The notes beneath the pieces were generated by a model. The model worked only from the letters and a program-made list of their open reading frames with translations, had not been told where the DNA came from and did not search any database. Below, in pieces: positions 13,426 to 58,227 of a stretch of DNA of 64,000 nt. The position numbers and the translations under genes are program-made. Position 1 is the first letter of the stretch. Each line of letters begins with the position of its first letter. Origin of the DNA: Bacteroidales bacterium (GTDB lineage: Bacteria; Bacteroidota; Bacteroidia; Bacteroidales; VadinHA17); assembly GCA_016715075.1 (NCBI GenBank), contig JADKBK010000006.1, positions 95,509 through 159,508 of the forward strand. Reading direction: 5' to 3'.

Positions 13426-13612
13426 AATCTGTGTTACTTTGTGAGATACTTTGTGCCAGCAGAAAAAGTAGTTTTTACCCCCCAACCCCCCAGGGGGGGC
13501 TTTAAAACTTATTGGTTTTAAATAAGTCCCCCCTGGGGGATTTAGGGGTGTCACAGAGAAAATCGACTTTTTCTACAGCCACCAGGGATACCCAAAGGTA
13601 CACCAGAGATTT
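13426..13612. repeat. intergenic element A: ~190-bp imperfect palindrome with two inverted C-tract/G-tract core modules
   Basis: The arms AATCTGTGTTACTTTGTGAGATACTTTGTGCCAGCAGAAAAAGTAG.. and ..CGACTTTTTCTACAGCCACCAGGGATACCCAAAGGTACACCAGAGATT are inverted. The core-like modules sit at 13475-13500 and 13527-13550. Confidence 0.7.
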
Positions 13613-13646
13613 AGAAGAGTAATCCCTGTTAAATCAGAAAGTAAAA

Positions 13647-14066
13647 TCAGATTTGGAAAATGCAGATTACCTGCTGTTCGACACAGACAGGAGTGTATAC
13701 TCCAGGTGGTCTTTTTGAACCTGATACAAGTGAGCCAAACATCTCCATACCGGAGAGTTGAATGTCGTTCAGGATAAATGAATGGATTAATATCTGCCCG
13801 GGCTCTAAAAGCTGGAAACAGACAGAAGGTACATAGATTGAACTTATTTTGAATGAATGAATTACATCTTCACAGCAGTGTCTCGAAAACAGATCGATTG
13901 TTGATTTAGATCCCGTCTGGTGTTCCATACCACATGTAGCAACCTCACCTGTCAGTGATACTTTTGCTGCTGAAATCTGTCCTCCGCAATAATGTGAAGC
14001 GATCTTAACATTTAACCCTGTTAAGAGTATCAGCAGTGTCAGCGATATGGAGAGTATGTATTTCAT
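13647..14066 (-). CDS. small membrane protein, HYC_CC_PP-like family (metal-efflux associated)
   Basis: Contains SHYCGG, HCCED and RPPGVY motifs and an N-terminal TM segment. The likely start is MKYILSISL at 14066; the track ORF extends to a GTG at 14102 that abuts the cysN stop. Confidence 0.5.
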   Translation of the reverse strand: MKYILSISLTLLILLTGLNVKIASHYCGGQISAAKVSLTGEVATCGMEHQTGSKSTIDLFSRHCCEDVIHSFKISSIYVPSVCFQLLEPGQILIHSFILNDIQLSGMEMFGSLVSGSKRPPGVYTPVCVEQQVICIFQI

Positions 14067-14102
14067 CCAGTTGAGAAACAATCCTGTGACAAATAAGTTC
14101 AC

Positions 14103-15371
14103 CTAAACGACCATTCCGGCTGCTACGGTCTCATTTGTTCCTTCGTCAATGAATATCATACTGCCTGTGATATTGTTCTCTTTATATGGGTCAAAAAATA
14201 CCGGTTTGGATGTCTTTATGCTGATGTATGCAAGATCGTTCATATTTACCACCAGATTTTCATAATCATGTTCAAGGGTATCAATGTTCATCCTGTAGCC
14301 AACAGATTTTACAATGCATCCTGCTTCATTACTGTTCATGCGGATAAGATATTTTCCGCCAACCTTCATAGGCAGTTCATTGAACCAGCAGATCATAAGG
14401 TTGATATCCTGACTGATAACCGGCAGATCATTTGAACCTGCCAGCATGTCACCGCGGCTGATATCTATCTGGTCTTCAAGGGAAATTGCGACAGAATCTC
14501 CGCCGATTGACTCAGATATTGTTTTTCCGAACATATCAATGCTACTGATTTTTGATTTGCGCAGTGACGGGAGCACAGTAACCTCATCACCCGGTCTGAA
14601 TACTCCTCCGGCAACTCTTCCTGCATAGCCCCTGTAATCATGAAATTCGGAGGTATGGGGGCGAATTATTGTCTGAACGGGAAAGCGTTGATGCAAAGGA
14701 TTCTTATTCTTCCTTATTTCAATTGTCTCAATAAGGTGAAGGAATGTTTTCCCGCTGTACCATTTCATGTTTTCAGAATTGTCAACAACGTTATCTCCAT
14801 ATTTGGCACTTATCGGAATATAATGAGGATCTTCAATTTTAAGTTTTTTAACAAGCGCTGACAGTTCCGTTTTTATATCGGTGAAGACAGATTCAGACCA
14901 GTTCACCATATCCATCTTGTTAATACAGAATATTATGTGCCTGATGTCAAGGAGCGAAGCTATATAGGAATGCCTCAGAGTCTGTTCGAGTACACCCTTT
15001 CTTGCATCGATAAGTATTACAGCAAGATCGGCAGTGCTTGCTCCTGTAACCATGTTCCTGGTATACTGGATATGACCCGGTGTGTCAGCAATAATGAACT
15101 TTCTGGCAGGAGTTGCAAAATATCTGTAGGCTACATCAATTGTAATTCCCTGTTCCCTTTCTGCTCTCAGTCCGTCTGTCAGGAGTGAGAGATCAAGTTC
15201 TTCCCTGCCTAGCCTCTTTCCAGACTGAACTATGTGCTCCATCTGGTCCTCAAAGATTGATTTGCTGTCATACAGAAGCCTTCCTATGAGCGTACTCTTT
15301 CCGTCATCCACACTGCCAGCTGTAGTAAATCTCAGAAGACTCTTGTTTTTGCTTTTACCGTTTATTGTCAT
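14103..15371 (-). CDS. cysN: sulfate adenylyltransferase subunit 1 (GTPase), no fused APS-kinase domain
   Basis: 422 aa with the G1 motif GSVDDGKSTLIGRLL, then DTPGH and NKMD. Confidence 0.9.
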   Translation of the reverse strand: MTINGKSKNKSLLRFTTAGSVDDGKSTLIGRLLYDSKSIFEDQMEHIVQSGKRLGREELDLSLLTDGLRAEREQGITIDVAYRYFATPARKFIIADTPGHIQYTRNMVTGASTADLAVILIDARKGVLEQTLRHSYIASLLDIRHIIFCINKMDMVNWSESVFTDIKTELSALVKKLKIEDPHYIPISAKYGDNVVDNSENMKWYSGKTFLHLIETIEIRKNKNPLHQRFPVQTIIRPHTSEFHDYRGYAGRVAGGVFRPGDEVTVLPSLRKSKISSIDMFGKTISESIGGDSVAISLEDQIDISRGDMLAGSNDLPVISQDINLMICWFNELPMKVGGKYLIRMNSNEAGCIVKSVGYRMNIDTLEHDYENLVVNMNDLAYISIKTSKPVFFDPYKENNITGSMIFIDEGTNETVAAGMVV

Positions 15372-15382
15372 TTGAATCTATT

Positions 15383-15609
15383 TCCTTAAACTTTGAACCT
15401 TAAACCTTAAACCTTAAACCTTAAACCTTGAACTTTAATTACCCACCCCTGGCCCCTCCCAGGAGGGGAACCGGATTCCACTGCGCCCTGCGCCCTGCGC
15501 CCCGAATTTACCCACCCCTGACCCCTCCCAGGAGGGGAACCTGTATCCATTGCGCCTTACGCCCTCAGCCCTGAGCCCTACGCCCAGCCTTCGCTAAAGC
15601 TACGGCTGG
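15383..15609. repeat. intergenic element B between cysD and cysN: heptamer arrays + two core modules + terminal hairpin
   Basis: (ACCTTAA)~8 at 15383-15438. Core 1 TTACCCACCCCTGGCCCCTCCCAGGAGGGGAACC at 15439-15472. (CTGCGCC)3 at 15481-15501. Core 2 at 15508-15541. (CTNNGCC)5 at 15550-15584. Hairpin CCAGCC..GGCTGG at 15584-15609. Confidence 0.8.
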
Positions 15610-32819: not shown

Positions 32820-34073
32820 TTACTTTATATCAAATAACCTGCATATATGCCTGCTGAAAATGTTTTCATAAACGGATTCTGATACTTTATCTTCATATTT
32901 GTCAAGCAGGCTGAAATATGTATCCATTTTATGTGCAGCCAGCTTATATGCCACGTGAAGCAGCTGCCTCATATCCGGATTATAGTTACTGTTACCCGGG
33001 ATATGCCTTATAGCTGCAGCAAATCTTTCCTGATTCCATACCGCTACTTCCTTTTTTGAAGGGAGATGCGAAATCCTGATGTCAATCACATCCGCATAAG
33101 GGGCACATAATTCTTCAATCATATCAAGCGATTCAAAATAGATCTCCTTAACAAAGTCAAGGGCTTCTCCTCCGGATACTGCCAGGCCAATGACTTCTTC
33201 TAGCCAGGTAGTTCCTGCAGTTTTAATATGAATGCCTTTATTGAATTTGCGGACAATTGATCCTATGGATGGGTAGATCGCAAATTTATCTGAGCCTGAG
33301 TGAATACTCATTTTGAGGTTTTCCGGTAATCCGAATTCCCTGACCGCATAATCAATTACCTTAAGGTCTGATTCAAATTCCAGATTAAAAGCTTGCGGGT
33401 CACCAACATAATCAACTCCTTTATTGAATCTTCCCGAGAATTTGGGAGCTATTGTCTGAACAGGGATATTTTCCAAAGCAAGCATCCGGAGAATGAAAAA
33501 GAGCTCTGCCGGCGTCTGTGGCTCAGGAACTTCATCCATTGAGACCTCAGTAATAAAATTGCCTCTTCCTTTGGCTTTTTCAATTTTCCGGTAAATATCC
33601 CATGCCTTAAGGGCTGCGAAAAGATACTTCTCAGTTATATTAATGATCTGCTGTTTTGAGATGTTAAACGACCTTGCAATGCCGGGAATTTTAAGCTCCC
33701 CTTCATATTTTAATGCACCTGAGAGGAACTCTTTTATCTCATTATCATCCGCTTTACTCCCAATATATGAGGCCACATCAATTGTGAAGAAATCAGAACT
33801 ATCTATGAACCTGTCCACGGTATCGAAATTTATATGATCAGCATCAACAAAGTATTCTTTAAGGAACCCGGCTTTTTTTGTTGCGTGATCGGCCTCTGTC
33901 CTTACATCTGAAGGTTGAGTGCCAATTGTCATATGCTCCCTGTTGGATTTATTCCAGACAGGGGTTATTTCTATTCCATGCTTTGAGGCTTCAGTAATTG
34001 CTTTCAGCTGTGCTGTGCCCTGATGGCCAAACCTGTCACCAAGTCCAAAGGAATATTTTCCAAGTGTTTTCAT
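32820..34073 (-). CDS. uxaE: tagaturonate/fructuronate epimerase family protein
   Basis: 417 aa. SFGLGDRFG, VDADH, EVSMDEVPEPQTP and SIHSGSDKFAIYP..HIKTAGTTWLE parallel the Thermotoga UxaE motifs as I recall them. Confidence 0.65.
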   Translation of the reverse strand: MKTLGKYSFGLGDRFGHQGTAQLKAITEASKHGIEITPVWNKSNREHMTIGTQPSDVRTEADHATKKAGFLKEYFVDADHINFDTVDRFIDSSDFFTIDVASYIGSKADDNEIKEFLSGALKYEGELKIPGIARSFNISKQQIINITEKYLFAALKAWDIYRKIEKAKGRGNFITEVSMDEVPEPQTPAELFFILRMLALENIPVQTIAPKFSGRFNKGVDYVGDPQAFNLEFESDLKVIDYAVREFGLPENLKMSIHSGSDKFAIYPSIGSIVRKFNKGIHIKTAGTTWLEEVIGLAVSGGEALDFVKEIYFESLDMIEELCAPYADVIDIRISHLPSKKEVAVWNQERFAAAIRHIPGNSNYNPDMRQLLHVAYKLAAHKMDTYFSLLDKYEDKVSESVYENIFSRHICRLFDIK

Positions 34074-34109
34074 ATGTGTCGTTTGATTTTCGTATTTATT
34101 TACATTATG

Positions 34110-35166
34110 CTAAACAAAGAAGTCAACATTTTCAGATGTGATTATATCTACAGGAAGGTACTCTATTTTTTCAGGCATCTTATTGAGTGAAAGGAATTCG
34201 AAGAGCTTCTTAACTGCCTTATATGTCTGTTCTTCCGGACGCTGTCCGATAAGGAAGCGTATATTTCCTGATTGCAGATACAGTACATTTTTATCCAGTA
34301 GGTCATATCCGATGAGGTTAATGGTTTTTAATCCTTTTTCCTCGAGACAGGCAGCAATCAGATAGGATTTCGACCCCGACATGAATATTGAACCTATTCC
34401 TGGATTCACACTGAAAGCTCCATCGATAGCGTTTCTGATATTGTCCTGAGTAGGGTCGGCTATGCTGATTTGAATCTTTTTACCCCTGTTGCGGCCCGAT
34501 TTCCCGAAATAGCCAAGAAAACCCTGCATACGTTTGTTAAGGTGAGGTACATTCTGGATGTTTCTTGCGAAATTGATAATTAAAATGTCGCTCTCAGCCG
34601 GAGTAATCATATCAGCAAGCTGTCCGGCTACTCTTCCACTTCTGTAAATATCCTCCCCGATATATGCCAGGAAATTTGTATTTTCAATAAATCCGTCAAC
34701 AAAAACAAATGGAATGTTTATTTCATTAAGTCCCGAGCAGAAGACTACTGATTCAGATTTGAATATAGGAGCGAGCAATACCCCGTCAGGTTTTCATACT
34801 AAGAATATTCCTTGACTTTCTCTGAAAATCTTCCTCATTGAACATATCAAAAGTGATCTGAGTGAGACTTACACGGAACAGGTCAAGCTCTTCGATAGCC
34901 CTGTTTATCCCTGCTGAATGCTTTTCCCAGAAAACGTTATCCTTAGAAGGCTCGGGAAGAAGTGATATGAGATGATAGCCTTTTCTTGATTTTAATACCT
35001 GGGCCATAACATCAGGGGAATAATTTGTCTCTTTCAGTATCTGCCTGACCTTTTCCCTGGTTTTTGCAGCAACCCCATCCCGTTCATGCAACACCCTGTC
35101 GACAGTCCCAATCGATACTCCGGCAAGCCTTGCAATATCTTTTATTCTGCTTTTCTTCGGCGTCAT
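34110..35166 (-). pseudogene. LacI-family transcriptional regulator, split by a +1 frameshift between the HTH and sugar-binding domains
   Basis: ORFs 34786-35166 (IKDIARLAGVSIGTVDRVLH) and 34110-34778 are halves of one regulator. Removing one T from the T4 run at 34791-34794 restores ..NILSMKPDGVLLAPIFKSE... Confidence 0.8.
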
Positions 35167-35218
35167 GAACGGTTTATCAGTATAGTGAGATTATGCACAG
35201 TTTACAGCTTTTAATTTC

Positions 35219-35353
35219 GGACTTCGGTCTTCACTTGTTTTAACCCACCCCTAACCCCTCCAGGGAGGGGAATCAGGAGCATCGGACTTCGGACTTCGGA
35301 CTTCGGACTTCCGACTTCGGACTTCCGACTTCCGACTTCGGACTTCCGACTTC
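35219..35353. repeat. intergenic element C: core module + ~10 tandem heptamers (SGACTTC)
   Basis: GGACTTC GGTCTTC at 35219-35232. Core TTAACCCACCCCTAACCCCTCCAGGGAGGGGAATC at 35240-35274. (GGACTTC/CGACTTC) x ~10 at 35284-35353. The element ends 5 nt from the exuT stop. Confidence 0.8.
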
Positions 35354-35358
35354 ACCTT

Positions 35359-36647: not shown

Positions 36648-36679
36648 AGGTTTGTCTTCAGGTTATATTAAAAGCTGTT

Positions 36680-38134: not shown

Positions 38135-38177
38135 GATTGATTAGTTTATTTATTAATGTTTCTTTTTGACCATATTT

Positions 38178-38240
38178 GGTTCTGGGTACTGGTTTCTGGT
38201 TTCTGGGTTCGATCACCCAGCACCCAGCACCCAGCACCTA
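38178..38240. repeat. intergenic element D: inverted heptamer arms (GGTTCTG-like x5 / GCACCCA x~4)
   Basis: GGTTCTG GGTACTG GTTTCTG GTTTCTG GGTTCGA TCACCCA GCACCCA GCACCCA GCACCTA. It starts 3 nt from the oxidoreductase stop. Coordinates were checked against ORF 38156-38368. Confidence 0.8.
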
Positions 38241-38243
38241 TTT

Positions 38244-39230
38244 TCAGCGTAGTCCCTTATAGTATCCCTCCACCACTTCATCCATCACCCTGCTTGTCCG
38301 GGCCCCGCTTTCTCCGGTACTGGGAGAAACGCCTTTTCCTTCCAGTGCCCTTACTATTTTGTCAATAAGGAAGTACTGGACATGCTCGGGGCGTTCATTG
38401 ATAAATTCCTGCCGGCCTGATTCATTTACTAAAACAATCGGTTCAAAGCTGAAGGTTGAGAATCTTATTGATCCTGTTGTTCCGGTTATTTCAATAATAT
38501 CTCTGTTACTCTCTTTTGAAGCATTGAAGCACCAGGTTCCCACCCCGGCAATATCTCCGGGAAAAACAAACTCGGCGGTAACGAAATCTTCAGCTTTATA
38601 AAGTCCTCCCTGGTTCAGAGCTAACGATCGTATCTTCTGTACAGGTCCGAATAAATAATCAAAATAGTCAAGCTGATGGCTGGCAAGATCAAAAAAATGT
38701 CCGCCGCCTGATATATCCGGGTCAACCCGCCACGGCAACCTTCCAGATTTCTCATCATCTGAAGGAGACTTAAAAAGCTGAGTCTGAAGCAGACGCACTT
38801 TGCCGATACTGCCTTTTTCGATAAGATCCTTTACTTTCAGAAAACCAGGAAGTGCCCGTCTGTAATATGCCACAAAAACAGGGATCCCTGATTCCCGGGA
38901 TGCCGTATTGATTTTTGTACACTCAGCATAGTTAAGCGCCATTGGCTTTTCTATATAAACCGGCTTGCCTGCCTTTAATGTGGCTATTGCATACTCCATA
39001 TGGCTGGAAGGAGGTGTTGCAACATATACTGCGTTTACATCTTTATCATTAATGAGATCACGGGCATCAGAATAGAACTTTGGAACGTTATGTCTGGACG
39101 CATAGTCTTCAGCCAGCGAACGGTTTCTTCTCATAACCGCTATCAGTCTTGAGCCCTCAACCTTACTGAATGCAGGACCGCTTTTGACTTCCGTTACATT
39201 GCCGCAACCTATAATCCCCCAATTTATCAT
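38244..39230 (-). CDS. Gfo/Idh/MocA-family NAD(P)-dependent oxidoreductase
   Basis: 328 aa with the N-terminal Rossmann motif INWGIIGCGNV and EKPMA. Confidence 0.8.
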   Translation of the reverse strand: MINWGIIGCGNVTEVKSGPAFSKVEGSRLIAVMRRNRSLAEDYASRHNVPKFYSDARDLINDKDVNAVYVATPPSSHMEYAIATLKAGKPVYIEKPMALNYAECTKINTASRESGIPVFVAYYRRALPGFLKVKDLIEKGSIGKVRLLQTQLFKSPSDDEKSGRLPWRVDPDISGGGHFFDLASHQLDYFDYLFGPVQKIRSLALNQGGLYKAEDFVTAEFVFPGDIAGVGTWCFNASKESNRDIIEITGTTGSIRFSTFSFEPIVLVNESGRQEFINERPEHVQYFLIDKIVRALEGKGVSPSTGESGARTSRVMDEVVEGYYKGLR

Positions 39231-39248
39231 ATGATTCTCCTGTTAATT

Positions 39249-40523
39249 TCAGTTCGTTAATCTTTCCCTGGAAGTCCATAATCCAAGGGCAGGATTGGAA
39301 ATATAAAATATCTCCTCTCCGTCACTCATTATGTTTATTCCATCTTTAAGCTTTTCGGGATTATATTTTCCGATCATGGAACCCAGGTCGTGATATTTGA
39401 AATTGACGGATTCTATTTCGTCGCGGCTCAGATTTCCCGGGCAGTATGTTACAGAGAACCTTCCTTCGGAACTACCGTGAATAAGATGCGCAGCTGCACT
39501 AAGGTTATTCCTGAGTTCCTCATTTTCCTTAAGTGATTTAAGTGTGGCAGGAGTACCACGGTAGCCATATTTCCTTATTAACCGGTCAATCTCCCTGTCT
39601 TCCCCAAACTCTTTTAATCCAGGTGCAAGTACAATTAATTCACCATTGTCAGCCATAGCCATTCTTGTCCTGTAGATGCTCTTGTTTCCAAGCCATGTGC
39701 TTTTAAATTCGGCAGGATCAAGATAGACAACCACTTTCTTCAATGGTTTATCGAGAATTCAGAAGTTAACCTTAAGTGATAATTCAGCAGCAAGCCTGAA
39801 TACCTCTTCGTCATCACCTATAAAAAGACCCCTGATCACCAGCTTCCCTGTATCATCCCGTCCAATAACCGTATGAACATAAACAACAGGCAGATGCTTC
39901 ATAAACTCAGCTGCAGCATGATTAAGGAGATTCCTTACCGGGTTGCTGTATTTGCCCATGATCTTCTCCATCCCGCAAACAGCACCTACGAAATGGCTCT
40001 TATTTATTCCTTCCGGTCCTCCGGTACCGATAAGAAGATTCTTATTGAAATTAGCCATTCCGATCACTTCATGAGGTACAACCTGACCCACTGAAAGTAT
40101 CAGATCATGGCCGCCATTATATACCAGCTTATTGAGCTGAGCAGGCCACGAATAATCAAGTGCCCCGTTTGTAATTGCCGAAACGTACTCTCCTGGTACA
40201 GTACCGATTGTGACAACGTCATTTCTCCAGTCATGGATCCGGAAAAGATCTTTCGGTACCCCCCGGAACATCTGATCAAGCTGAGTGTCAGTCATTGGGG
40301 CATGTGTCCCCAATGCAGGCAGGATATCTTTAAGATTGCTCTTATAGTAGTTGTAAATCAGGGTTGTCAGATCGCCTGCTCTTGAGTGGTAACGGGTAAA
40401 GTCCGGAGGAACAACAAGCACTCTTTCTCTTTTTCCAAGCTTATCCAGGGCAGACCTGAGGCCATATTCCAGATCACTTTGCCCGATTACAGTATTTTCG
40501 GAACCAGACTTGTAGTAGATCAT
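39249..40523 (-). pseudogene. LarA-like (DUF2088, nickel-pincer-dependent racemase/epimerase family) gene interrupted by one in-frame TGA
   Basis: ORFs 39759-40523 and 39249-39743 are in the same frame, reading ..LSLKVNF-TGA-ILDKPLKKVVVYLDP.., for a total of ~424 codons, the length of LarA. Contains VLVVPPDFTRYHSRAG and GQVVPHEVIGMANFNK. Confidence 0.7.
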
Positions 40524-40578
40524 TATTTAACTTTTATATTGTACATTTATATAAAACAGTTCTGTTTTTTTATTTACA

Positions 40579-40669
40579 GGTTCTGGGTTCTGGGTTCTGG
40601 GTTCTGGGTTCTGAGTTCCAGCACCCAGCACCCAGCACCCAGCACCCAGCACCCAGCATCCAGCACCCC
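40579..40669. repeat. intergenic element E: (GGTTCTG)5 - AGTTCCA - (GCACCCA)5 GCATCCA GCACCCC inverted heptamer arms
   Basis: Read from the sequence. Copy number was confirmed from the track translations that cross it (FWVLGSGFWVL..STQHPAPSTQHPA on +; GAGCWVLGAGCWVLGAG..TQNPEPRTQNPEP on -). It ends 3 nt from the uxuB stop. Confidence 0.85.
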
Positions 40670-40672
40670 TTT

Positions 40673-41515
40673 TCACACTCCACTGTATGCACTGAATCCA
40701 CCGTCGACCGGAATCACGACTCCCGTAACGAATTTGGAGAGGTCGGAGATAAGGTATAACAGAGTCCCGCAAAGCTCTTCAGGTGCACAATATCTTTCCA
40801 TCGGGGTTCCCTTGAGTACCTTAAGTCCTCTGGGTGTTGGACCGCCAGTTTTTTCATCAATCAGCAGGAAACGGTTCTGGTTGGTGAGCAGAAATCCCGG
40901 TGCAATGGCATTTACACGTACTCCCGTTTTCGAGAAATGGACAGCAAGCCATTGGGTGAAATTATTAACCGCTGCCTTGGCAGCTGAATATGCGGCAATT
41001 TTTGTGAGCGGCCGGTATGAATTCATGGATGAAATATTTATTATTACCCCTGACTTCTTTCTGACCATATCCGTGGCAAACACCATGGTAGGTATTAATG
41101 TTCCCTTGAAATTGATATCAAAAACCTTCTCGAAGCCTTCTATCTGAAGTCCGAAAAATGTGTCTTCAATATTCTCGTTGTCAGTCCCTTCCATTTTTTC
41201 TACTTTGGTAGTACCGGCAGGCGAATTACCTCCGGCACCGTTAATGAGGATATCGATCGGACCTAATTTGTCATTGATTTCAGTTTTTGCTGCCAGGAGA
41301 GATGCTTTATCAAGGACATTTGCCGACAAACCTATTGAATGTATTCCGAATTCCTTTTTAATTTCTCCGGCTACTTTATCGGCTGCCTCCCTGTTCAGGT
41401 CAAGAATGGCGCATTTGACTCCCTGATCAGCGAGCGCTTTCGCCATGACGGAACAAATTACACCACCGCCACCGGTTATAACCGCAACTTTGTCCCTTAA
41501 GTTAAACTCATTCAT
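40673..41515 (-). CDS. uxuB: SDR-family D-mannonate/fructuronate oxidoreductase (in the current sequence fused in frame to uxaC)
   Basis: C-terminal ~280 aa of the 781-aa ORF. It begins at the internal MNEFNLRDKVAVITGGGGVIC (ATG 41515-41513) and has YSAAK as the catalytic motif. Confidence 0.7.
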   Translation of the reverse strand: MNEFNLRDKVAVITGGGGVICSVMAKALADQGVKCAILDLNREAADKVAGEIKKEFGIHSIGLSANVLDKASLLAAKTEINDKLGPIDILINGAGGNSPAGTTKVEKMEGTDNENIEDTFFGLQIEGFEKVFDINFKGTLIPTMVFATDMVRKKSGVIINISSMNSYRPLTKIAAYSAAKAAVNNFTQWLAVHFSKTGVRVNAIAPGFLLTNQNRFLLIDEKTGGPTPRGLKVLKGTPMERYCAPEELCGTLLYLISDLSKFVTGVVIPVDGGFSAYSGV

Positions 41516-42928
41516 TTCAGTTTGTTTTTTTATAAAGTTAAAATAGTTCTTTGCATTTGTATAGGATATGCCTTCTATCAAAGGCTTCAGTAACTCCTCT
41601 TCATCCGGAATAAGTCCTTTCTCAACCTGGTCTCCAATAAAATTGCAGACCAAACGTCTGAAATATTCATGGCGTGGATAGGAGAGAAAACTTCTTGAAT
41701 CAGTCACCATTCCGACGAACCTTCTCAGCAGGCCCAGTGATGTCAGATCTCTGAGGTGTTTTTCCATGCCATGCATCTGATCAAGAAACCACCATGCAGC
41801 ACCATACTGAACCTTCATGGGATAGCTTCCGTCATTGAAATTGCCCGCCATTGTGATCATCATCTCGTTATCTGAAGGATTGAGATTATAGAGGATAGTC
41901 CTTGAAAGCTGATCGGTATTGTCGAGCGCATCCAGAAATTTGGACATCTTAAAGGCATCCTGTGATACTCCTATAGAATCCCAGCCGGTATCAGCACCCA
42001 TCTGCCTGAATTTTCTTGAATTGTTATTTCTAAGAGCTCCGACATGAAATTGTTGCGTCCAGCCCTTTTCATGATTCATTTTGCAGAGCTCGATCATAAT
42101 GGCTGACCGGTACTTCTCAGTCTCTTCTGATGATAAGGTATTTCCCCTGAGAAGCTTCTTGAAAATAGCATTCACCTCCGAAGGCGTGCATTCAGAATAA
42201 TAGAAGCGGTCCATACCATGATCAGATAGCCGGCATCCTGCTTCATGAAAGAATGAATGTCTTCTGTGAAGTGCTTCAATAAGGTTGTAAAATGTCCTTA
42301 TGCCTGAACCACTAGAGTGTGCAAGATGCTGAACATATTTTTTGAATTTTTCCGGATCATCAGTTTTGAGGACATTATCCGGCCTGAAGGTGGGCAGTAC
42401 TGTCGTCTCGAAAGTTTTTTTAAGCTTAATGTGATGTTCAAGTGAATCTGCCGGATCATCAGTGGTGCAGATGATCTCTGCATTCATTTTTCTTATCATT
42501 GATCTGGTAGTGAACTCCTTTGTCCTGAGCATGGCTGATGCTTTTTCATATATCCCTTCAGCAGAAGAGGGTGAGAGGAGTTCATAAATATCGAAATACC
42601 TTGCCAGCTCAAGATGTGTCCAGTGATATAGCGGATTTCCCACAGTTGCCGGGACTGTCTCAGCCCATTTCCGGAACTTCTCAATGTCAGAAGCATTTCC
42701 AGTGCAGTATCTTTCGGTTACTCCATTGCCCCGCATTGCCCTCCATTTATAGTGATCACCTTCAAGCCACGCCTGCGAAAGATTGCTGAAATGACGATCA
42801 TCAGCGATCATGGCAGGGGAGAGATGACAGTGAAAATCTATTATAGGTTGATTTTCAGCATATTTATGATAAAGCTTTCCGGCAGTTTTATTCCCAAGCA
42901 GAAAATTCTCATTAATAAATGACTTCAT
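41516..42928 (-). CDS. uxaC: glucuronate isomerase (no stop codon before uxuB in this sequence)
   Basis: The likely start is MKSFINENFLLGNKTAGKLYHKYAENQPIIDFHCHLSP at 42928; the track ORF starts 30 codons upstream at a non-ATG codon. The body ends ..NAKNYFNF, followed by the linker IKKQTE. Confidence 0.8.
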
Positions 42929-43165
42929 ATCTTCCAGAGGATTGTAAAAATATTTAAATTTGAAGATTATTGTTTCGTTAACGATCACGAAATTATGAAA
43001 TTCAATCCAATTATTCAAGAAATATGTGAAATGTCATTAATAATAGCGTTTCAGTTTTTCAGAGTTAGAATGATTATAGCATAGAATTATTATAAAATTT
43101 AACTATAGGTTTATTCCTGAACCATTATTCAGTTTTCATTTGACATCAATTTTAAAACGAAATCC

Positions 43166-44314
43166 ATGAAAAATCCAAAACCCATTCTTCTGTTTTTACT
43201 CATTCTGACATTTTTTTCATCATGTTCCAATAATAAGCCAGTAGCTTCTTTCAGGGACGATCTCACAGTCAGTGACGTTAAAAATGTTCTGAAAGCAATT
43301 GCAGACTGGCAGATCAAAACACCCCTTACCCATCATACGGCTGACTGGACAAATGCAGCTCTGTATGCAGGAATGGTGCAGTGGGCCGGAATAGCAGGTG
43401 ATGATACTTATTATGAATGGCTGAAAGGTAAAGCTGAGCTGAATGCATGGTCAGATAAAAAACCTGATACTCCGCTTGGCAGATATCATGCAGATGATTA
43501 TTGTGTTGGCCAGACCTACATAGAACTTTACAGAAAGTATAAGGATATTAAAATGATTGAACCGGTGAGAGCACATCTGGATAGTATTCTCCAGGATCCG
43601 GCAACCGGCTCACTTGAGTTTACATATACAGACACCTATTGGCCAACTGAGCGCTGGGCCTGGTGTGATGCTCTTTTCATGGGACCGACAGTTTGGACTA
43701 AAATGGCTAATGTGACAGGAGAGAAGAAATACCTCGACTTTATGTTCCAGGAATTCCAGTTAACGACTGATTATCTTTATGATAAGGAGGAATATCTATA
43801 TTACAGGGATTCCAGATATTTCACTATGAAGGAAGCTAATGGAAAAAAAGTCTTCTGGGGACGCGGCAACGGATGGGTATTTGCCGGCCTTCCTGTGATA
43901 TTAACTGAGCTACCGGCAGGATATGAAAATAAAGAATATTTTGTGAAAATTTATAAAGATATGGCTGCAAAGATTCTCTCACTTCAGTCAGCTGATGGTT
44001 TCTGGCATGCAAGTTTGCTGGATCCTGCCAGTTATCCCAATCCGGAGATGAGCGCCACTGCATTTTTTGTCTATGGCTTTGCCTGGGGCATTAATAATGG
44101 TTACCTTGATAAGGAAACTTATCTGCCTGCTATAATTAAAGGATGGAAATCAATGGTTACTAATGTGGGACCGGATGGAAAAGTGGGCTTCATACAGCCA
44201 ATTGGAGCAGATCCCAAAGCCGTCACAAAAGATATGACTGAAGTTTATGGTGTCGGAGGATTTCTCATGGCCGGGACAGAAATCACAAAGCTTATAAATA
44301 ACGGGATATTGTAA
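43166..44314 (+). CDS. unsaturated uronyl hydrolase, GH105/GH88 fold (lipoprotein)
   Basis: 382 aa with the lipobox FFSSCS and WAWCDALFMGP, (alpha/alpha)6-type motifs, next to kduI-kduD. Confidence 0.7.
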   Translation: MKNPKPILLFLLILTFFSSCSNNKPVASFRDDLTVSDVKNVLKAIADWQIKTPLTHHTADWTNAALYAGMVQWAGIAGDDTYYEWLKGKAELNAWSDKKPDTPLGRYHADDYCVGQTYIELYRKYKDIKMIEPVRAHLDSILQDPATGSLEFTYTDTYWPTERWAWCDALFMGPTVWTKMANVTGEKKYLDFMFQEFQLTTDYLYDKEEYLYYRDSRYFTMKEANGKKVFWGRGNGWVFAGLPVILTELPAGYENKEYFVKIYKDMAAKILSLQSADGFWHASLLDPASYPNPEMSATAFFVYGFAWGINNGYLDKETYLPAIIKGWKSMVTNVGPDGKVGFIQPIGADPKAVTKDMTEVYGVGGFLMAGTEITKLINNGIL

Positions 44315-44365
44315 GAGGGAGGCCTCAGACTCCACACGAAAGTTTAAATCAAATTCCGAATTATT

Positions 44366-45202
44366 ATGAAAACAGAACTAAGATATGCATCACATCCGGA
44401 TGATGTTAAAAGCTATGATACAGGAAAGCTCAGGGATCAGTTTCTTATTGAAAATGTCTTTATACCTGATGATATTTCACTTGTTTACTCACTTTATGAC
44501 CGCTACATGGTAGGAGGGGCAATGCCTGTGACCAGGGAGCTGGCGCTTGAAACTTCAGAGCTGCTTAAATCAGAACAGTTTCTTGACCGCAGGGAGATGG
44601 GAATTATCAATATTGGAGGCGATGCCGAGGTTAAGGCAGGTGATCTGCTATATAAAATCGGGTTCAAAGAGGCACTTTATCTTGGAATGGGGACAAGGAA
44701 CGTTGTTTTCAGATCTGCCGATCCTGCTAATCCGGCCCGTCTGTATATTAACTCAGCGCCAGCACATCATGCTTACCCTTCACGAAAGATCACCAGGGCT
44801 GACGCTGAGATAGTAGTGCTTGGAAATCCTGAATCCTCAAATCATCGTACTCTTAATAAATTATTGGTAAACAGTATTGTACCCACCTGTCAGCTTCAGA
44901 TGGGGATGACAGAACTAAGGACGGGCAGTGTTTGGAATACAATGCCGGTTCATACACATAACAGACGGATGGAGGCGTACTTCTATTTTGAAGTCCCGGA
45001 GCACCAGGCTATATGTCATTTCATGGGAAATCCAGATGAGACAAGGCATATCTGGATGAAGAATGAACAAGCAGTCCTCTCGCCTTCATGGAGTATACAC
45101 AGCGCCGCGGGAACGTCGAATTATACCTTTATCTGGGGAATGGCAGGAGAGAACCTCGACTACGGGGACATGGATGTGCGGTACCCGGATACACTGAAAT
45201 AG
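44366..45202 (+). CDS. kduI: 5-dehydro-4-deoxy-D-glucuronate isomerase
   Basis: 278 aa, with N-terminus MKTELRYASHPDDVKSYDTGKLRDQFLIENVF and a cupin His cluster. Confidence 0.9.
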   Translation: MKTELRYASHPDDVKSYDTGKLRDQFLIENVFIPDDISLVYSLYDRYMVGGAMPVTRELALETSELLKSEQFLDRREMGIINIGGDAEVKAGDLLYKIGFKEALYLGMGTRNVVFRSADPANPARLYINSAPAHHAYPSRKITRADAEIVVLGNPESSNHRTLNKLLVNSIVPTCQLQMGMTELRTGSVWNTMPVHTHNRRMEAYFYFEVPEHQAICHFMGNPDETRHIWMKNEQAVLSPSWSIHSAAGTSNYTFIWGMAGENLDYGDMDVRYPDTLK

Positions 45203-45219
45203 GCCAGTCTATGTGACTT

Positions 45220-45311
45220 GCACCCCCCCCCGGCCCCCCCCGGAGGGAGGGGGTAAATCAGTGTTATTACCAGATTTTTACCCCCCACTCAGGGGGGGCC
45301 GGGGGGGTAAG
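45220..45311. repeat. intergenic element F: palindrome of two inverted poly-C/poly-G core modules
   Basis: Left arm GCAC9GGC8GGAGGGAGGGGGTAAATC, loop AGTGTTATTACCA, right arm GATTTTTACCCCCCACTCAGGGGGGGCCGGGGGGGTAAG. It lies between kduI and kduD. Confidence 0.8.
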
Positions 45312-45355
45312 AAATAGCAACAAAACATTTGAATTACACATAAACATTTCTATAT

Positions 45356-46150
45356 ATGACTGATTTATTTGATCTTACAGGTAAGGTAGCTCTGGTTACC
45401 GGAGGTACTCATGGCATAGGTCTTGCTACGGGTATCCTGCTTGCAAAGGCCGGAGCAAAAGTGTGTGTTAACGACCTGAATGAGGTGAAACTCCAGGCAT
45501 GCAGGGAGAACTACAAAAAGGCAGGACTTGATGTCTTTGTTCTCAGATTTGATGTCACTGACGAGGCTGATGTTGACAGGGGAATTGGCATAATTGAGAA
45601 GAGCGTCGGATCAGTCGATATACTGGTGAATAATGCCGGAATAATAAAGAGGATCCCCATACTTGAGATGGCAATATCTGACTATAAGCAGGTTATTGAG
45701 GTAGACCTGGTCGCACCCCTGATAGTCTCGAGGAGAGTAGTCCCGAAAATGATTGAAAAAAGGAGCGGGAAAATCATAAATATGTGTTCAATGATGAGCG
45801 TATACGGTCGAAATACGGTCTCCGCTTATGCTTCTGCCAAAGGCGGTTTAAAATTACTTACTCAGAGTATGACATGCGAGTGGGCAAAATATAATATTCA
45901 GATAAACGGCATAGGACCAGGCTATATTGCAACCGCGCAGACCGCACCGATACGGGAGAACGGTCATCCTTTCAATGATCTGGTTATGACCCGAACGCCT
46001 GCAGGGCGGTGGGGCGAACCGGAAGATGTGGCAAATGCAGCCCTGTTTCTTGCATCAAAAGCCAGTAATTTCGTAAATGGTCATATCCTTTTTGTGGACG
46101 GAGGGATCCTTGCTAACTTCGGATATGTTAAGGGGGAGAATGATCTCTGA
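45356..46150 (+). CDS. kduD: 2-dehydro-3-deoxy-D-gluconate 5-dehydrogenase / gluconate 5-dehydrogenase-type SDR
   Basis: 264 aa with TGGTHGIGLA, NNAG and YASAK, downstream of kduI. Confidence 0.8.
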   Translation: MTDLFDLTGKVALVTGGTHGIGLATGILLAKAGAKVCVNDLNEVKLQACRENYKKAGLDVFVLRFDVTDEADVDRGIGIIEKSVGSVDILVNNAGIIKRIPILEMAISDYKQVIEVDLVAPLIVSRRVVPKMIEKRSGKIINMCSMMSVYGRNTVSAYASAKGGLKLLTQSMTCEWAKYNIQINGIGPGYIATAQTAPIRENGHPFNDLVMTRTPAGRWGEPEDVANAALFLASKASNFVNGHILFVDGGILANFGYVKGENDL

Positions 46151-46228
46151 TCTCCAATCTCTAATCTGAGGTCAGAGTATTAAGAAATTTATTGCTAATG
46201 TTAAAAGTCAGCCCGAAGCCAATGACTT

Positions 46229-47155
46229 TTAACCTTTATTGTCCGGATTATCAGGATGATCATCTGAATAGGGCTTTGCATAAAGATCCTCAACTCTCAC
46301 CCTGTCTTTCTCAGGTTCAATGATAGTGACCACCTCACTCATCTCCTCCCTGGCTCTCGCATTGAAATAAAGAATGCAGGAAAAGAGCGGTATTAGAGGA
46401 AGTGTAAGGGCCCCGACAAGAGCAGACAGTATAATAAAAAGAGGATTCTGCGTCATATTGACAAGATCAGTGGTCTCTCCGGGGTTCGCAATTGTCTTGA
46501 TGAAGCTGCCCGTAAACGGCAGAAGGATAATACCCGAAAAGATTAATGTTAAAACAACTAAAATTATAAGAAATACAGCAACCCAACCAATGTTTGACCA
46601 GAAGTTCCTGTGCGAAAGTTTGATTGTCCTTGTAATAGTATCTGCTATATTGGCTTCCTCAGCCATCATAACAGGAAGAATAAAAAGGTAAAGGGTCATC
46701 ACATACAGAATTGAAAAAAAGACACCAACCACGAGAAGCAATATACCCAGAATAATAGCCACTGAGGCAGCAATCGCCAGCAGAATCATTACAATAAGAT
46801 AGGGTACAAAATATTTCATCGATTTCAGTACTGCAACTAAAATATTATTCTCGCTGCTGAGTGGGTTATATAGAATATAATACTGCAAAACGACACTAAA
46901 CAGAAGATTTATCAGGGAAATGATCAATACAGGAACCATCATCTCTTTCATTTTTCCCAGCATTAACATCGGATCTGTTATTGTGGAAAGTTCCTGAATA
47001 TTGACGTATGTGGAGATATACTGAAGCGCCAGCGACATTACGAAGGAGATCAGAAAAAGAGGAATAAACCTTTTCTTGTAAAAGTCCCACAATGAACTCA
47101 TTGCGGTATCTATATTGTGTTGCATATAAAGAGGGTGATTCCTGAACTGGTCCAT
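46229..47155 (-). CDS. polytopic membrane protein, unknown function
   Basis: 308-aa ORF with about 6 hydrophobic segments. I do not recognise a family. Confidence 0.4.
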   Translation of the reverse strand: MDQFRNHPLYMQHNIDTAMSSLWDFYKKRFIPLFLISFVMSLALQYISTYVNIQELSTITDPMLMLGKMKEMMVPVLIISLINLLFSVVLQYYILYNPLSSENNILVAVLKSMKYFVPYLIVMILLAIAASVAIILGILLLVVGVFFSILYVMTLYLFILPVMMAEEANIADTITRTIKLSHRNFWSNIGWVAVFLIILVVLTLIFSGIILLPFTGSFIKTIANPGETTDLVNMTQNPLFIILSALVGALTLPLIPLFSCILYFNARAREEMSEVVTIIEPEKDRVRVEDLYAKPYSDDHPDNPDNKG

Positions 47156-55918: not shown

Positions 55919-57232
55919 TTGACCAGGTCTGCAAAAATAATTTTGTTTATCACCTTGCTTTTATTAGTAAGTATACATCCCGGAGCTCAGGAGAACAATG
56001 TGGTGATAGCTGATAAACTTGTACCGAGCAATGTAAGGATTACGAACAATACTCCGGGAGTTCAGGATTATCCGGATGCTGAAAAGGTGATTAATTCATT
56101 TATGCATAAATGGTCAATTGCCGGAGCATCAGTTGCAGTCTCCAGGAATGGGAGGCTTATTTTTGCGAGAGGCTTTGGATATGCCGATACCATAGCCAGG
56201 ACCCCGACTCAGCCATATAATCAGTTCAGAGTTGCAAGTATATCAAAACTTATTACGGCTATTGCAGTGATGAAACTTCAGGAGGAGGGAAAACTTTCAC
56301 TTGAGGCTAAAGTTTTTGGTCAGGATGGTATTCTGAATGATCCGTATTTCTCAGGACCTAAAGATAGCCGTGTAAATGATATTACTGTAGCTCAGCTTTT
56401 AAGTCATGAGGCCGGGTGGACGCAAAGATATGGAGATCAGATGTTTATGCCAATTGTTGTTGCAGAAGCCATGAAGGTCAAGCCACCGGTGGATACAAAG
56501 ACAATTGTCAGATTTGCTTTGGATAAAAGACTTCATTACACCCCTGGCATGGGACGGGCATATTCTAATCTGGGATACAGTGTCCTTGGTCTGGTTATTG
56601 AAAAAGTCAGCGGAATGTCATATGAAAAGTATTGTAAACATTCAGTTCTGGAACCGCTGGGCATATATGATATGACTATTGCAGGGAATCTTCCAACGGA
56701 AAAAGCTCCTTTCGAGGTGACATATTATGAGCCATCTGATGTAGTTCTCAAACCTTCTATTTATGGAACCGGTGAAATGGTTACTCCAAGGTATGGCGGT
56801 AATGATATAAGAGCTCTTGGAGGTGCAGGAGCCTGGATAGCTACAGCTCCGGATCTGATGAGATTATTGCTTGCTGTCGATGGATTTCAGACACGCCCCG
56901 ACATTTTAGGCAATCAGAGCATACAGTTCATGACCGACTTAAGCAATGGCTTTGCACCAGTAGGATGGAAAGGAACTGTGATGGACGGAAACTGGTGGAG
57001 AACAGGTTCATTCCCCGGAAGTGCAGGTATGCTTAAAAGACAACCAGACGGAACAGCTTGGGTGGTGCTTCTTAATTCCAGCGCCTGGAATGGTCCTGAA
57101 ATCTATTCCTATATAAGTAATATGATGAACAAGGTAGTTGCCCGGATCGATCCTTTACCGGAATATGATCTGTTCAATAATTCAATCCCACTGCCTTTAA
57201 ATTCTGCGTTAACAGAATATACAACAAGGTAA
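55919..57232 (+). CDS. serine hydrolase, beta-lactamase/PBP4* fold
   Basis: 437 aa with a TTG start in the track, a signal peptide and the SxxK motif VASISKLITA. Confidence 0.7.
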   Translation: MTRSAKIILFITLLLLVSIHPGAQENNVVIADKLVPSNVRITNNTPGVQDYPDAEKVINSFMHKWSIAGASVAVSRNGRLIFARGFGYADTIARTPTQPYNQFRVASISKLITAIAVMKLQEEGKLSLEAKVFGQDGILNDPYFSGPKDSRVNDITVAQLLSHEAGWTQRYGDQMFMPIVVAEAMKVKPPVDTKTIVRFALDKRLHYTPGMGRAYSNLGYSVLGLVIEKVSGMSYEKYCKHSVLEPLGIYDMTIAGNLPTEKAPFEVTYYEPSDVVLKPSIYGTGEMVTPRYGGNDIRALGGAGAWIATAPDLMRLLLAVDGFQTRPDILGNQSIQFMTDLSNGFAPVGWKGTVMDGNWWRTGSFPGSAGMLKRQPDGTAWVVLLNSSAWNGPEIYSYISNMMNKVVARIDPLPEYDLFNNSIPLPLNSALTEYTTR

Positions 57233-57234
57233 TA

Positions 57235-57960
57235 ATGTGTTTCACGGTTAATGTTAATCTTATTAAAGAGGAGCTTGAAAACCGTTATGGTGCGACCTTG
57301 ATAGATCCTGATAAATACAGGCCTAGTTATTATTATCACGCATACGCACTTCCGTCAATACCGTCAGTTTGTTCCCCGGAACCCACAAAGATAAGAGTTC
57401 TGAAATGGGGCCTCATACCATCATGGACAAGGAGCCCTGAGGATGCTGACATAATACGTTATAAAACATTCAATGCCAGGTCTGAGAGTATAGATACAAA
57501 ACCCTCATTCTCCTCATCGGTAAAATCAAAACGTTGCATTATTCCGGTTAAGGGGTTCTTTGAATGGCAACATTCAGGAAAGACGAAAACCCCATTTTAT
57601 ATTTTCCATTCAAATAATGAGATTTTGTCATTAGCCGGGGTGTTCGACGATTGGGTCGACAGCAGTACAGGTGAGCTTTATCTACTTTCTCCATTATTAC
57701 AACTGATGCAAATGACCTTATGGCTGAAATTCATAACTCCGCTAAAAAGAATGCCTGTTATCCTCGATAAACAATCAGAGGAAATCTGGATAAAACAATC
57801 CTCAACCCTCTCTGATGCTCTCTCAGTTCTCAGGCCTTACCCCTCTGATCTTCTTCAGGCCCATACTGTAAGTCCGCTGATAAATGACCGGGGAGCTGAC
57901 CGCAATACACCGGAGGTTATAAAGCCATATACCTATCCTTCTGGGAATACACTCTTTTAG
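57235..57960 (+). pseudogene. SOS-response-associated peptidase (SRAP/YedK family) carrying a compensated double frameshift
   Basis: It starts MC.. (Cys2) and has WGLIPSW and FNARSE motifs. The conserved block TFSIITTDANDLMAEIHNSAK is encoded at 57684-57746 in a different frame from the open ORF, which reads LLSPLLQLMQMTLWLKFITPLK there. Confidence 0.7.
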
Positions 57961-57971
57961 GTAGCCATCAG

Positions 57972-58227
57972 GATGTCATTCAATAGTCATTTATGTCATT
58001 GCGCAGGTCATTAGTGGTCGTTAAGTGGTCATTAAGTGGTCATTAAGTGGTCATTAAGTGGTCATTAAGTGGTCATTGGTCAGGTCTAGCAGTACTTTAC
58101 AATAAATGACGGCCGCAGGCCAAATGACCATCGAATGACGGCCGCAGGCCGAATGACTATGAATGACGCGGATTTTATACACTGTAGCCTTGGCGAAGGT
58201 GTAAGGCCGGATGACCATCGAATGATG
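57972..58227. repeat. intergenic element G: GTCATT-rich left arm with 11-mer array (GGTCATTAAGT x~5) and AATGAC-rich right arm
   Basis: 11-mer array at 58016-58070. The right arm repeats AATGACGGCCGCAGGCCRAATGACYATSG twice (58105-58160) and carries the hairpin-like module AGCCTTGGCGAAGGTGTAAGGCCGG. The element lies between convergent genes. Confidence 0.75.

Follow-up and report, generated by a model that had tools for sequence, protein, structure and literature searches.

What are the GC-rich, repetitive blocks that lie in the spacers of an AT-rich Bacteroidales genome, and do they form a family of their own? The question is raised by a 64,000-nucleotide (nt) stretch of a Bacteroidales bacterium of the VadinHA17 lineage (GenBank assembly GCA_016715075.1, contig JADKBK010000006.1, positions 95,509 to 159,508 of the forward strand), hereafter the window. 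An initial annotation, made from the letters alone, described seven such elements, A to G, assembled from a short core, tandem arrays and inverted arms, and recognised in them no described family. All seven elements are present. Their parts, however, have been described: the core is the BoxC/PIT/TM motif, where TM stands for triplex motif (PMC4666352), and heptamer arrays are documented too (PMC4679880). We hold with high confidence that the window cores are motifs of the TM/BoxC type and that the arrays are simple-sequence repeats of heptamers. The TM modules are members of a family found across phyla, and the reference copies of that family bracket a DUF559 nuclease gene as inverted repeats.

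The canonical core, CCCACCCCTNNCCCCTCCNNGGAGGGGAA, occurs three times in the window, at 15442, 15511 and 35244; in shuffled sequence zero copies are expected, even with 3 mismatches allowed. The unit measures about 31 nt and reads on its G-rich strand CCCCTCC, loop, GGAGGGG, TTA, GGGGTGG(G), which gives the window pattern CCCCTCC N2-4 GGAGGGG N3 GGGGTGG. Arms 1 and 2 are Watson-Crick partners, and arm 3 is the mirror of the purine arm 2 with T or A in place of A. These are the features of a class II TM, in which stems of at least 6 nt are separated by loops of 1-6 nt, the third arm runs antiparallel to the purine arm, and G stands opposite G and T or A opposite A. The stems are constant while the loop and linker vary, and in 130 distinct copies the edges of the unit are sharp, with AA at each end and nothing conserved outside. 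Seven copies of a core of about 34 nt had been counted at first. The common three-part design stands for all of them, with B1, B2 and C canonical, whereas the left and right copies of A and F are sequence variants. A strict TM detector picks up B1, B2, C and F-right; the remaining three, A-left, A-right and F-left, each match the class II design but for one imperfection.

The third arm was examined more closely. In loci selected by the core, an A shifted within the purine arm is answered by T or A at the mirrored third-arm position. In an independent test, with loci chosen by protein and not by core, the full-length mirror match was found in 93 of 111 informative hairpins, compared with 20 for a direct-repeat model and 35 expected from permuted arms. 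Counted by purine-arm type, the mirror model was ahead in 11 of 24 and the direct model in 1, the remainder being tied. Divergent variants such as AGGAAG/GAAGGA, GAGGAGA/AGAGGTG and AAAGGGGGA/AGGGGGATT keep the same rule. Polymerase copying is unable to generate mirror symmetry. Judged from the sequences, the mirror rule is the signature of a putative single-strand purine-motif triple helix (G.G-C, T.A-T, A.A-T). A G-quadruplex was considered and rejected. The canonical core does have four G-runs, yet variants such as GAGAGGG, GAGGAGA and GGAAG lack them and still obey the mirror rule, so the triplex design explains more.

Motifs of this kind have a history. According to the later survey that summarises the early work, BoxC was first noted in E. 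coli, and Hoyne et al. came upon it again in 2000 as the PIT element (PMC4666352); Bachellier's studies of the 1990s also belong to this literature. The survey, by Holder et al. in 2015, catalogued the motif as TM/TMECO, a class II intrastrand triplex motif, and circular dichroism and nuclear magnetic resonance demonstrated triplex formation in vitro for the E. coli variant (PMC4666352). TM copies in intergenic positions number 23 in E. coli MG1655, without strand bias and including five inverted doublets; the counts are high in Microcystis, Anabaena and Nostoc, and TM is associated with locus rearrangement (PMC4666352). Purine-motif triplexes do not form in RNA (PMC4666352), which argues for an element acting at the level of DNA. 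No transposase or integrase remnants were reported near the motif, and the text of the survey mentions neither DUF559, ycjD nor Bacteroidetes (PMC4666352).

A gene was nevertheless found beside the motif. Translation of the long open reading frames (ORFs) that hold cores gave a protein of about 120 amino acids (aa) immediately 5′ of the core at loci of Bacteroidales, Nostoc, Cyanothece, Flavobacteriaceae, Pontibacter and Brocadiaceae. It is a Pfam DUF559 protein (E = 2.6e-30) with a Vsr-like PD-(D/E)xK fold. Among solved structures it comes closest to 3hrl, with 3r3p, a group I intron homing endonuclease, matching distantly, and the closest NCBIfam model is the E. coli YcjD equivalog, with a score below the cut-off. 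The core lies at the 3′ end of the DUF559 gene in 9 of 9 core-selected loci, no more than 25 nt away in 8, and its C-rich strand is the one in the coding sense; most of the nine also carry an inverted core or variant just upstream. The flanking hairpins point outward and their third arms point toward the gene.

The arrangement holds in about 55-70% of a set drawn independently of the motif, for which an alignment of the nuclease domain only was used to draw 80 loci from metagenomes. Within 160 nt upstream, 42-56 of the 80 have the G-form; within 140 nt downstream, 35-51 of 77 have the C-form; and the opposite orientation appears in 5-15, as against a TM in 15-17 of 2020 control windows from DUF559 loci (0.8%). 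At a given locus the upstream and downstream copies are of the same variant. The core also enters the protein: the C-terminal PTPxPSxxG is the core read in frame and is present in 77 of the 120 closest database homologues, retrieved with a query lacking the tail, and many further homologues have decayed or multiple core-derived tail copies. For annotation it matters that the elements create spurious ORFs and read-through tails such as PTPNPSQEGN. That the DUF559 gene and the motif are truly associated we consider close to certain. A literature search of incomplete coverage returned no paper linking DUF559 or ycjD to BoxC/PIT/TM motifs, and DUF559 may be the partner enzyme that earlier studies of these motifs did not find.

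The gene itself does not behave as an insertion sequence. Identical DUF559 proteins on 12-16 contigs always share a single genomic context, and the order cysS-DUF559-ispG is kept in at least 8 distinct Bacteroidales loci whose CysS and IspG are 74-82% and 67-81% identical to the reference. From this fixed position across diverged Bacteroidales, the gene is apparently inherited vertically, as RAYT genes are. Across phyla the DUF559 proteins are 53-67% identical.

Several DUF559 loci show further variation of the motif. Upstream of the gene in seven of the collected loci (L144, L167, L169, L186, L193, L194 and L206), a second small GC-rich hairpin of 12-25 nt takes the place of the 3-nt linker. 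L038 has a small hairpin nested within the purine arm itself, and at 1100-4294 of the same locus the DUF559 ORF continues through about 17 tandem 63-nt core-bearing units (KPTPDHSQEGNPKEDNPAKMI) into ispG, giving a 1064-aa chimeric ORF. A comparable tandem run follows the gene in L224.

How far does the core extend beyond these loci? Species-representative genomes were scanned with the exact 29-mer core, with taxa assigned from record titles, and at least 120 loci were found across many phyla. The reuse of a few parts in the manner of REP/BIME elements, which had been proposed for the window, is borne out there, and the parts recur in relatives and far beyond. Among the matches listed, cyanobacterial carriers are Okeania, Moorena, Symploca, Trichodesmium, Nostoc, Anabaena and Prochloron; Bacteroidota are represented by Pontibacter, metagenome-assembled genomes (MAGs) of Bacteroidales, Chitinophaga and Hyunsoonleella; and the others include Verrucomicrobiota, Planctomycetota, Calditrichota, Moduliflexus (UASB14) and Hydrogenedentota. 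Intergenic positions account for 117 of 149 core copies, and most "genic" copies fall in short spurious ORFs. In co-directional spacers the G-rich strand is in the mRNA sense 33 times and the C-rich strand 20 times; 19 copies lie in convergent and 15 in divergent spacers. Because both orientations and all these spacer types are used, a place just after stop codons, which the initial annotation had taken as a trait of the family, is no family rule. Inverted doublets, as in A and F, also occur at Verrucomicrobia and UASB14 loci.

In UASB14 (L014, L018, L039, L092, L095 and L100) the core sits within a larger repeat present in many identical copies, formed by two inward-facing cores around a 35-nt spacer and often found beside assembly gaps. 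Exact cores were also seen in the unexpected lineages Bifidobacteriaceae (MAGs L013, L061 and L064) and Moraxellaceae (MAG L050), those of L013 and L061 inside long ORFs; binning contamination or genuine transfer could account for them. Phages were rejected as a vector, the core being present in just 6 viral contigs, and a resemblance to PARCEL coding repeats proved to be a chance 10-mer match unrelated to the core.

Within the window, the seven elements and their parts are as follows (window positions).

13426-13612: element A, a long imperfect palindrome with an inverted doublet of TM variants and outer arms of CTTTGTG and CACAGAG-like units
13477-13502, purine strand minus: A-left TM variant, plus strand ACCCCCC AA CCCCCC A GGGGGGG
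13524-13549, plus strand: A-right TM variant, TCCCCCC T GGGGGA TTT AGGGGTG
15383-15609: element B, which fills the cysD/cysN spacer and consists of two canonical TMs, three heptamer arrays and, at its end, a small hairpin
15384-15438: array of element B, CCTTAAA in 7.9 copies (Tandem Repeats Finder)
15442-15470, minus strand: canonical TM B1, whose G-rich (purine) strand is the sense strand of cysD/cysN
15481-15502: array of element B, CTGCGCC in 3.1 copies (Tandem Repeats Finder)
15511-15539, minus strand: canonical TM B2
15553-15585: degenerate array of element B, CGCCCTA-like units in 4.7 copies
35219-35353: element C in the MFS/LacI spacer, a single canonical TM within a GGACTTC heptamer array
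35244-35272, minus strand: canonical TM C
35282-35353: array of element C, TCGGACT in 10.3 copies (Tandem Repeats Finder)
38178-38240: element D in the GFO/6PGD spacer, a hairpin without TM, its arms made up of heptamer arrays, (GGTTCTG)n followed by (CACCCAG)n
38178-38210 and 38214-38238: arrays of element D, 7-nt period
40579-40669: element E, a longer version of the D design, (GGTTCTG)5.7 then (CCAGCAC)7.3
40579-40618 and 40618-40668: arrays of element E, 7-nt period
45220-45311: element F in the KduI/KduD spacer, an inverted doublet of poly-C/poly-G TM variants
45225-45259 and 45273-45307: inverted arms of element F
45281-45306: F-right TM, positive in the strict TM test
57972-58227: element G, a long imperfect palindrome without TM, with the two repeats listed next as its arms, grouped with the others by architecture alone
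58006-58077: 11-nt array of element G, GGTCATTAAGT in 6.6 copies
58105-58168: 29-nt repeat of element G, AATGAC(C) units bearing GGCCGCAGGCC mini-hairpins

Much of what was first noted about these elements is confirmed by measurement. The spacers that bear them reach 57-82% G+C in 40-nt windows, in contrast with about 42% for the window. Tandem Repeats Finder returns the 7-nt arrays in B, C, D and E and the 11-nt period in G, where it adds one of 29 nt. TMs occur singly in B and C and as inverted doublets in A and F. A-left escapes the strict detector because the centre of its hairpin leaves a 1-nt loop, and the A-right variant type also flanks a DUF559 gene in L175. Element B includes a 69-nt duplication. 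The inverted arms had been described as able to fold into long imperfect hairpins, and long hairpins do form in A, D, E and F (folding z -4 to -7.6), with z of -5.5 to -6.5 on both strands of A, -4 to -6.4 for D and -6.6 to -7.6 for E, the arms of D and E carrying one mismatch per heptad. B and C show no global folding; G gives z of -2.8 to -3.7.

Each element starts 4-35 nt from the upstream stop codon, in keeping with the limit of about 35 nt given before, and leaves 12-79 nt to the next start codon. An element is held by 7 of the 29 spacers of at least 40 nt and by 0 of the 7 divergent ones, a deficit that is not significant alone (p about 0.1). Pfam matches for the flanking genes support the operon pairs cysD/cysN and KduI/KduD; the pair recorded as uxuB and LarA-like is rather a UxaC-SDR fusion next to LarA-like. 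Rfam gave zero matches for the elements at the gathering threshold, and at an E-value threshold just generic miRNA-precursor hairpin models far below their cut-offs. Beyond the seven elements, a small heptamer array (ATCTCTA in 3.6 copies, 46143-46167) followed by a CTGAGGTCAGAG mini-hairpin (to 46175) begins within the last codons of KduD and forms a weak eighth element of the same kind.

The hexuronate operon of the window (34110-43018) is itself irregular: four genes that are intact in relatives are split or fused here. The LacI gene is divided into 34110-34778 and 34786-35166 (351-361 aa in relatives), MFS into 35359-35805 and 35868-36647 (about 430 aa), and the LarA-like gene into 39249-39743 and 39759-40523 (424 aa), while UxaC and SDR are joined in a 781-aa ORF at 40673-43018 (467 and 280 aa). 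These are either pseudogenes or assembly indel errors.

The heptamer arrays accompany the core outside the window as well. A position of the core inside or beside 7-nt arrays is frequent at cyanobacterial loci and in MAGs of Bacteroidales; among 298 core flanks, 34 have a period-7 array of at least 3 copies, compared with 9 among 670 control segments. The period is strongly preferred: 1.44 Mb of collected sequence holds 225 tandem arrays of period 7, 39 of period 8, 12 of period 9, and no more than 5 of each remaining period between 5 and 12. Heptamer-armed hairpins are few outside the window lineage, to which such repeat-armed hairpins seem to be particular. In the window the heptamers have the properties of STRR/LSSR repeats, that is, head-to-tail 7-nt units in at least 3 copies, in intergenic positions, with copy number varying among relatives. 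Their units presumably differ from those of STRR1-3. Heptamer arrays of which strains differ by 7-nt steps are documented in Cyanobacteria and a few Bacteroidetes (PMC4679880), and the window units (CCTTAAA, CTGCGCC, TCGGACT, GGTTCTG, CACCCAG) differ from the TAACTGA reported there. We also considered the heptamers as accumulated target duplications and rejected this, since the flanking units often differ between sides, as in element B, and the junctions are not clean.

Are these elements conserved where they stand? Relatives were located through homologues of CysN and UxaC, the nearest having about 75-80% DNA identity to the window. At the cysD/cysN site, the two cores and three arrays of the window compare with a single core and GGCGCAG, GGTGCTG and AGGTTCA units in L125, and with heptamers and a small CCCC/GGGG hairpin, but no core, in L121; the CTGCGCC unit of element B recurs in both as GGCGCAG. 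In L122-L124 the same site holds an unrelated 64-nt tandem repeat whose copy number varies between samples. At site C, L128 carries a GGAAGTC array without core, so that the window core is embedded in an array which L128 carries core-free, and L126 and L130 have neither. At site D the hairpin with heptamer arms is present in three lineages (the window, L126/L127 and L128) with different units and arms still complementary, and L130 has no element; L126 and L127 are independent records with an identical D-site element. Site E has a one-armed (GCAGGGT)n array in L128 and no repeat in L126 and L130. Site F has a different long palindrome in L126 and nothing in L128 and L130. The orthologous spacers, whose comparison the initial annotation had proposed, show rapid turnover and module swapping, and such presence and absence, copy-number change and swapping mark fast-evolving repeats and not conserved terminators. 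The elements mark hypervariable spacers.

Two details of these sites are worth recording. The 64-nt unit of the cysD/cysN site forms 4-5 tandem copies (L122 9676-10000, and also L123 and L124) and contains GATTGCTTCGTCGCAAGCTCCTCGCAATGACGG, a hairpin which we take to be widespread in other phyla. At the GFO/6PGD site, the window (38178-38240) and L126 (14539-14640) carry the two arms of the heptamer hairpin in opposite order with respect to the gene: the sense strand reads GGTGCTG...CAGAACC in the former and GGTTCTG...CAGCACC in the latter, as if the palindrome had been inverted.

The association reaches a model organism. In E. coli K-12, a TMECO-type motif, CCCTCT GGGG AGAGGG TTA GGGTGAGGGG, lies about 170 nt downstream of ycjD, a DUF559 gene. 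In the ycjD-fabI interval of K-12 (L217 2700-2907), a duplicate of the last approximately 55 nt of ycjD precedes the motif, and the 3′ end of ycjD itself (CACCCTCTCCC...GAGGGGG) resembles a decayed motif. The gene is found in 3378 of 5426 complete E. coli genomes; those without it, including O157:H7, have an island of efflux genes between sapF and fabI, seen in L225 (O157:H7) and L226 (Esc23) as an MFS, outer-membrane and RND efflux cluster. The segment of ycjD plus motif and the efflux island are alternative alleles. The island allele was rejected as a clean empty site for ycjD, the position being filled by other genes. In an evenly spaced sample of E. coli genomes, the other motif-like places number a median of 18 (range 11-27) with the ycjD locus and 7 (1-17) without it, a difference of p = 7e-9 in a Mann-Whitney test uncorrected for phylogeny. 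The higher count in the presence of ycjD fits a maintenance role.

These observations can be put together as follows. The reading we favour, and judge probable, is that the seven elements are non-coding, non-autonomous intergenic repeat mosaics acting at the DNA level. One type of module is the BoxC/PIT/TM unit, a single DNA strand of which may fold into a purine-motif triple helix. The other consists of slippage-prone microsatellites, nearly all of period 7, that probably arose by slippage; in the window lineage some of these may have grown as complementary hairpin arms (D and E), and G likewise with an 11-nt unit. The elements would collect just past stop codons, where they spare the next promoter or ribosome-binding site, and their placement would reflect tolerance and not function; they turn over quickly among relatives. 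The DUF559 nuclease would recognise the folded motif and maintain or disperse it as RAYT does for REP/REPIN, and the TM copies of the window would be orphan members of the population so maintained.

Several observations weigh against this. Elements D, E and G are without TM and are linked to the others by architecture and co-location only, and the position of all seven window elements after stop codons is also predicted by a function at 3′ ends. There is no DUF559 gene within the window. Neither a target-site duplication nor a clean empty site was seen at core edges, DUF559 loci or the E. coli ycjD locus. The similarity of the proteins tracks the class of the core weakly, 47 of 63 nearest neighbours being of the same class where chance would give 62%, which fits recognition of structure or no recognition at all. 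A PD-(D/E)xK nuclease cannot rejoin DNA by itself, and for no member of this DUF559 group is nuclease activity, binding or mobility known. In E. coli the correlation between ycjD and the motif is confounded by phylogroup, and genomes of the O157:H7 type without ycjD retain about 12 motif places.

We regard it as an even question whether the DUF559 nuclease acts on the motif. More tentatively, with the chances somewhat below even, BoxC/TM and DUF559 may constitute a second cross-phylum system of the RAYT/REPIN kind, in which a fixed nuclease would recognise a folded triplex-hairpin of single-stranded DNA and maintain orphan motifs, the heptamers being possible by-products of nicking and repair. 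If true, a repeat family without a mechanism since the 1990s would have its origin and spread accounted for, and DUF559 would gain a function. BoxC/PIT/TM has been catalogued for about 30 years without a known means of spread, and its main survey reported no mobility genes nearby; the oriented association with DUF559, reaching as far as E. coli ycjD, makes the mechanism of spread testable in a model organism.

Alternatively, the motifs may need no dedicated enzyme. They would then be by-products of slippage, template switching and gene conversion at G/C tracts prone to form structures, and DUF559 genes would attract or tolerate them or use them for regulation or insulation. The difference by whole units between heptamer arrays of relatives agrees with this, as do the weak covariation of protein and core, the DUF559 gene that is positionally fixed in Bacteroidales and so not itself jumping, and the motifs that persist in E. 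coli without ycjD. Nevertheless, a sharp-edged 31-nt unit that is identical in many phyla is hard to make by local mutation, its mirror symmetry is beyond polymerase copying, and the oriented enrichment of about 70-fold at both ends of the DUF559 gene across phyla, with the same variant on both sides at each locus, points to a specific relationship. We consider this explanation unlikely, though it survives best among the alternatives.

A role in RNA, such as REP/BIME elements can have, comes slightly behind it and is also unlikely. Hairpins after stop codons in operons could protect the upstream mRNA from 3′ exonucleases, or terminate or attenuate transcription, and so tune cysD:cysN and KduI:KduD. 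The position of all seven elements, 4-35 nt past a stop codon and never in a divergent spacer, is what such a role predicts; the hairpins of A, D, E and F are very stable, and that of the GFO/6PGD spacer keeps its arms complementary in three lineages while the units differ. However, no terminators with a U-tract were called: a scan of 34000-47000 gave no hairpin with T-tract coinciding with elements C-F, and T-runs are absent from the sequence after A, B and G. Elements B and C have no global fold, every heptad of D and E contains a mismatch, and the orthologous sites are often empty or hold an unrelated element. The family as a whole uses both orientations and all spacer types, the earlier tests of PIT elements, as the survey relates them, gave no promoter or terminator activity (PMC4666352), and the mirror rule of the third arm has no rationale in RNA.

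The DUF559 protein might also be a free-standing homing-type endonuclease whose target is the inverted TM doublet, its gene having been inserted between the two halves and solitary TMs having spread otherwise. Its fold family does include the group I intron homing endonuclease of PDB 3r3p, gene-less inward-facing doublets with short spacers exist, for instance in Bacterium UASB14, and the proteins of different phyla are 53-67% identical. On the other hand, identical proteins always lie in one genomic context, the fixed cysS-ispG position fits vertical inheritance, and no clean pair of occupied and empty alleles is found, the E. coli alternative being the efflux-gene island. We judge homing improbable, more so than the two preceding explanations. 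Finally, that the elements are assembly artefacts of low-complexity sequence, to which the four broken or fused window genes could point through indel-prone sequencing, is excluded for practical purposes by equivalent elements at orthologous sites in independent assemblies (NCBI, ENA, JGI and Logan), L126 and L127 among them.

Returning to the intergenic mosaics that we favour, their relation to known systems can be stated module by module. With BoxC/PIT/TM the window cores share the class II order, the 3-nt second loop and the triads G.G-C, T.A-T and A.A-T, as well as variable loops with conserved stems, intergenic positions, absence of strand bias, inverted doublets, abundance in cyanobacteria and association with variable loci. 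They differ from TMECO in their stems, which are the 7-nt CCCCTCC/GGAGGGG/GGGGTGG in place of the 9-nt CCCTCNCCC/GGGNGAGGG, and the exact TMECO pattern CCCTCNCCC N3-6 GGGNGAGGG N3 GGGNGAGGG is unmatched by them. Compared with the published motifs, the host here is a member of Bacteroidales, the motif is embedded in heptamer arrays, and the link to DUF559 is added. The arrays resemble the cyanobacterial STRR and prokaryotic LSSR, described by Mazel in 1990 and Mrazek in 2007 as cited by MacGregor in 2015 (PMC4679880), in being intergenic, in changing by 7-nt steps and in mixing heptamers within a spacer; unlike those, they flank TM modules and form complementary hairpin arms in D and E.

The elements are also comparable to REP/BIME/REPIN sequences, which are short GC-rich extragenic hairpins after stop codons with mosaic clusters and inverted doublets, and like them they contain imperfect palindromes of 20-40 nt that are extragenic and clustered in mosaics. 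The likeness to REPIN-RAYT extends to a single-copy, vertically inherited nuclease gene between inverted repeat copies. In contrast to REP, the core is flanked by AA...AA without a GTAG or CGTC tag at the foot of the hairpin; REPs have no third mirror arm, and REPINs are not of the same sequence across phyla, as the core is. The flanked gene, moreover, is a DUF559 PD-(D/E)xK nuclease and not the Y1 transposase of RAYT. A RAYT partner was considered and rejected, since the lone nearby Y1 gene (in L122) is flanked by different hairpins and tblastn found no Y1 beside any core. That gene (L122 13505-13993), a 162-aa Y1_Tnp of RAYT/IS200-like type between GTCCC(T)ACGGGAC hairpins, represents a separate REP/RAYT-type system in the same lineage.

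The SDR repeats of Nostocaceae, as Elhai et al. are said to have described them in 2008 and as later papers summarise them, are dispersed sharp-edged modules of 21-27 nt; they reportedly insert at specific short sequences and within other repeats, and solely in Nostocaceae. With MITEs the motif has in common inverted terminal copies around a short spacer, non-autonomy and high copy number; it differs in the much smaller size of its single 31-nt units, in edges that show no duplication, and in a full element that bears a nuclease and not a transposase. The window elements are thus known kinds of repeat, extended to an uncultured Bacteroidales lineage and combined there in one mosaic.

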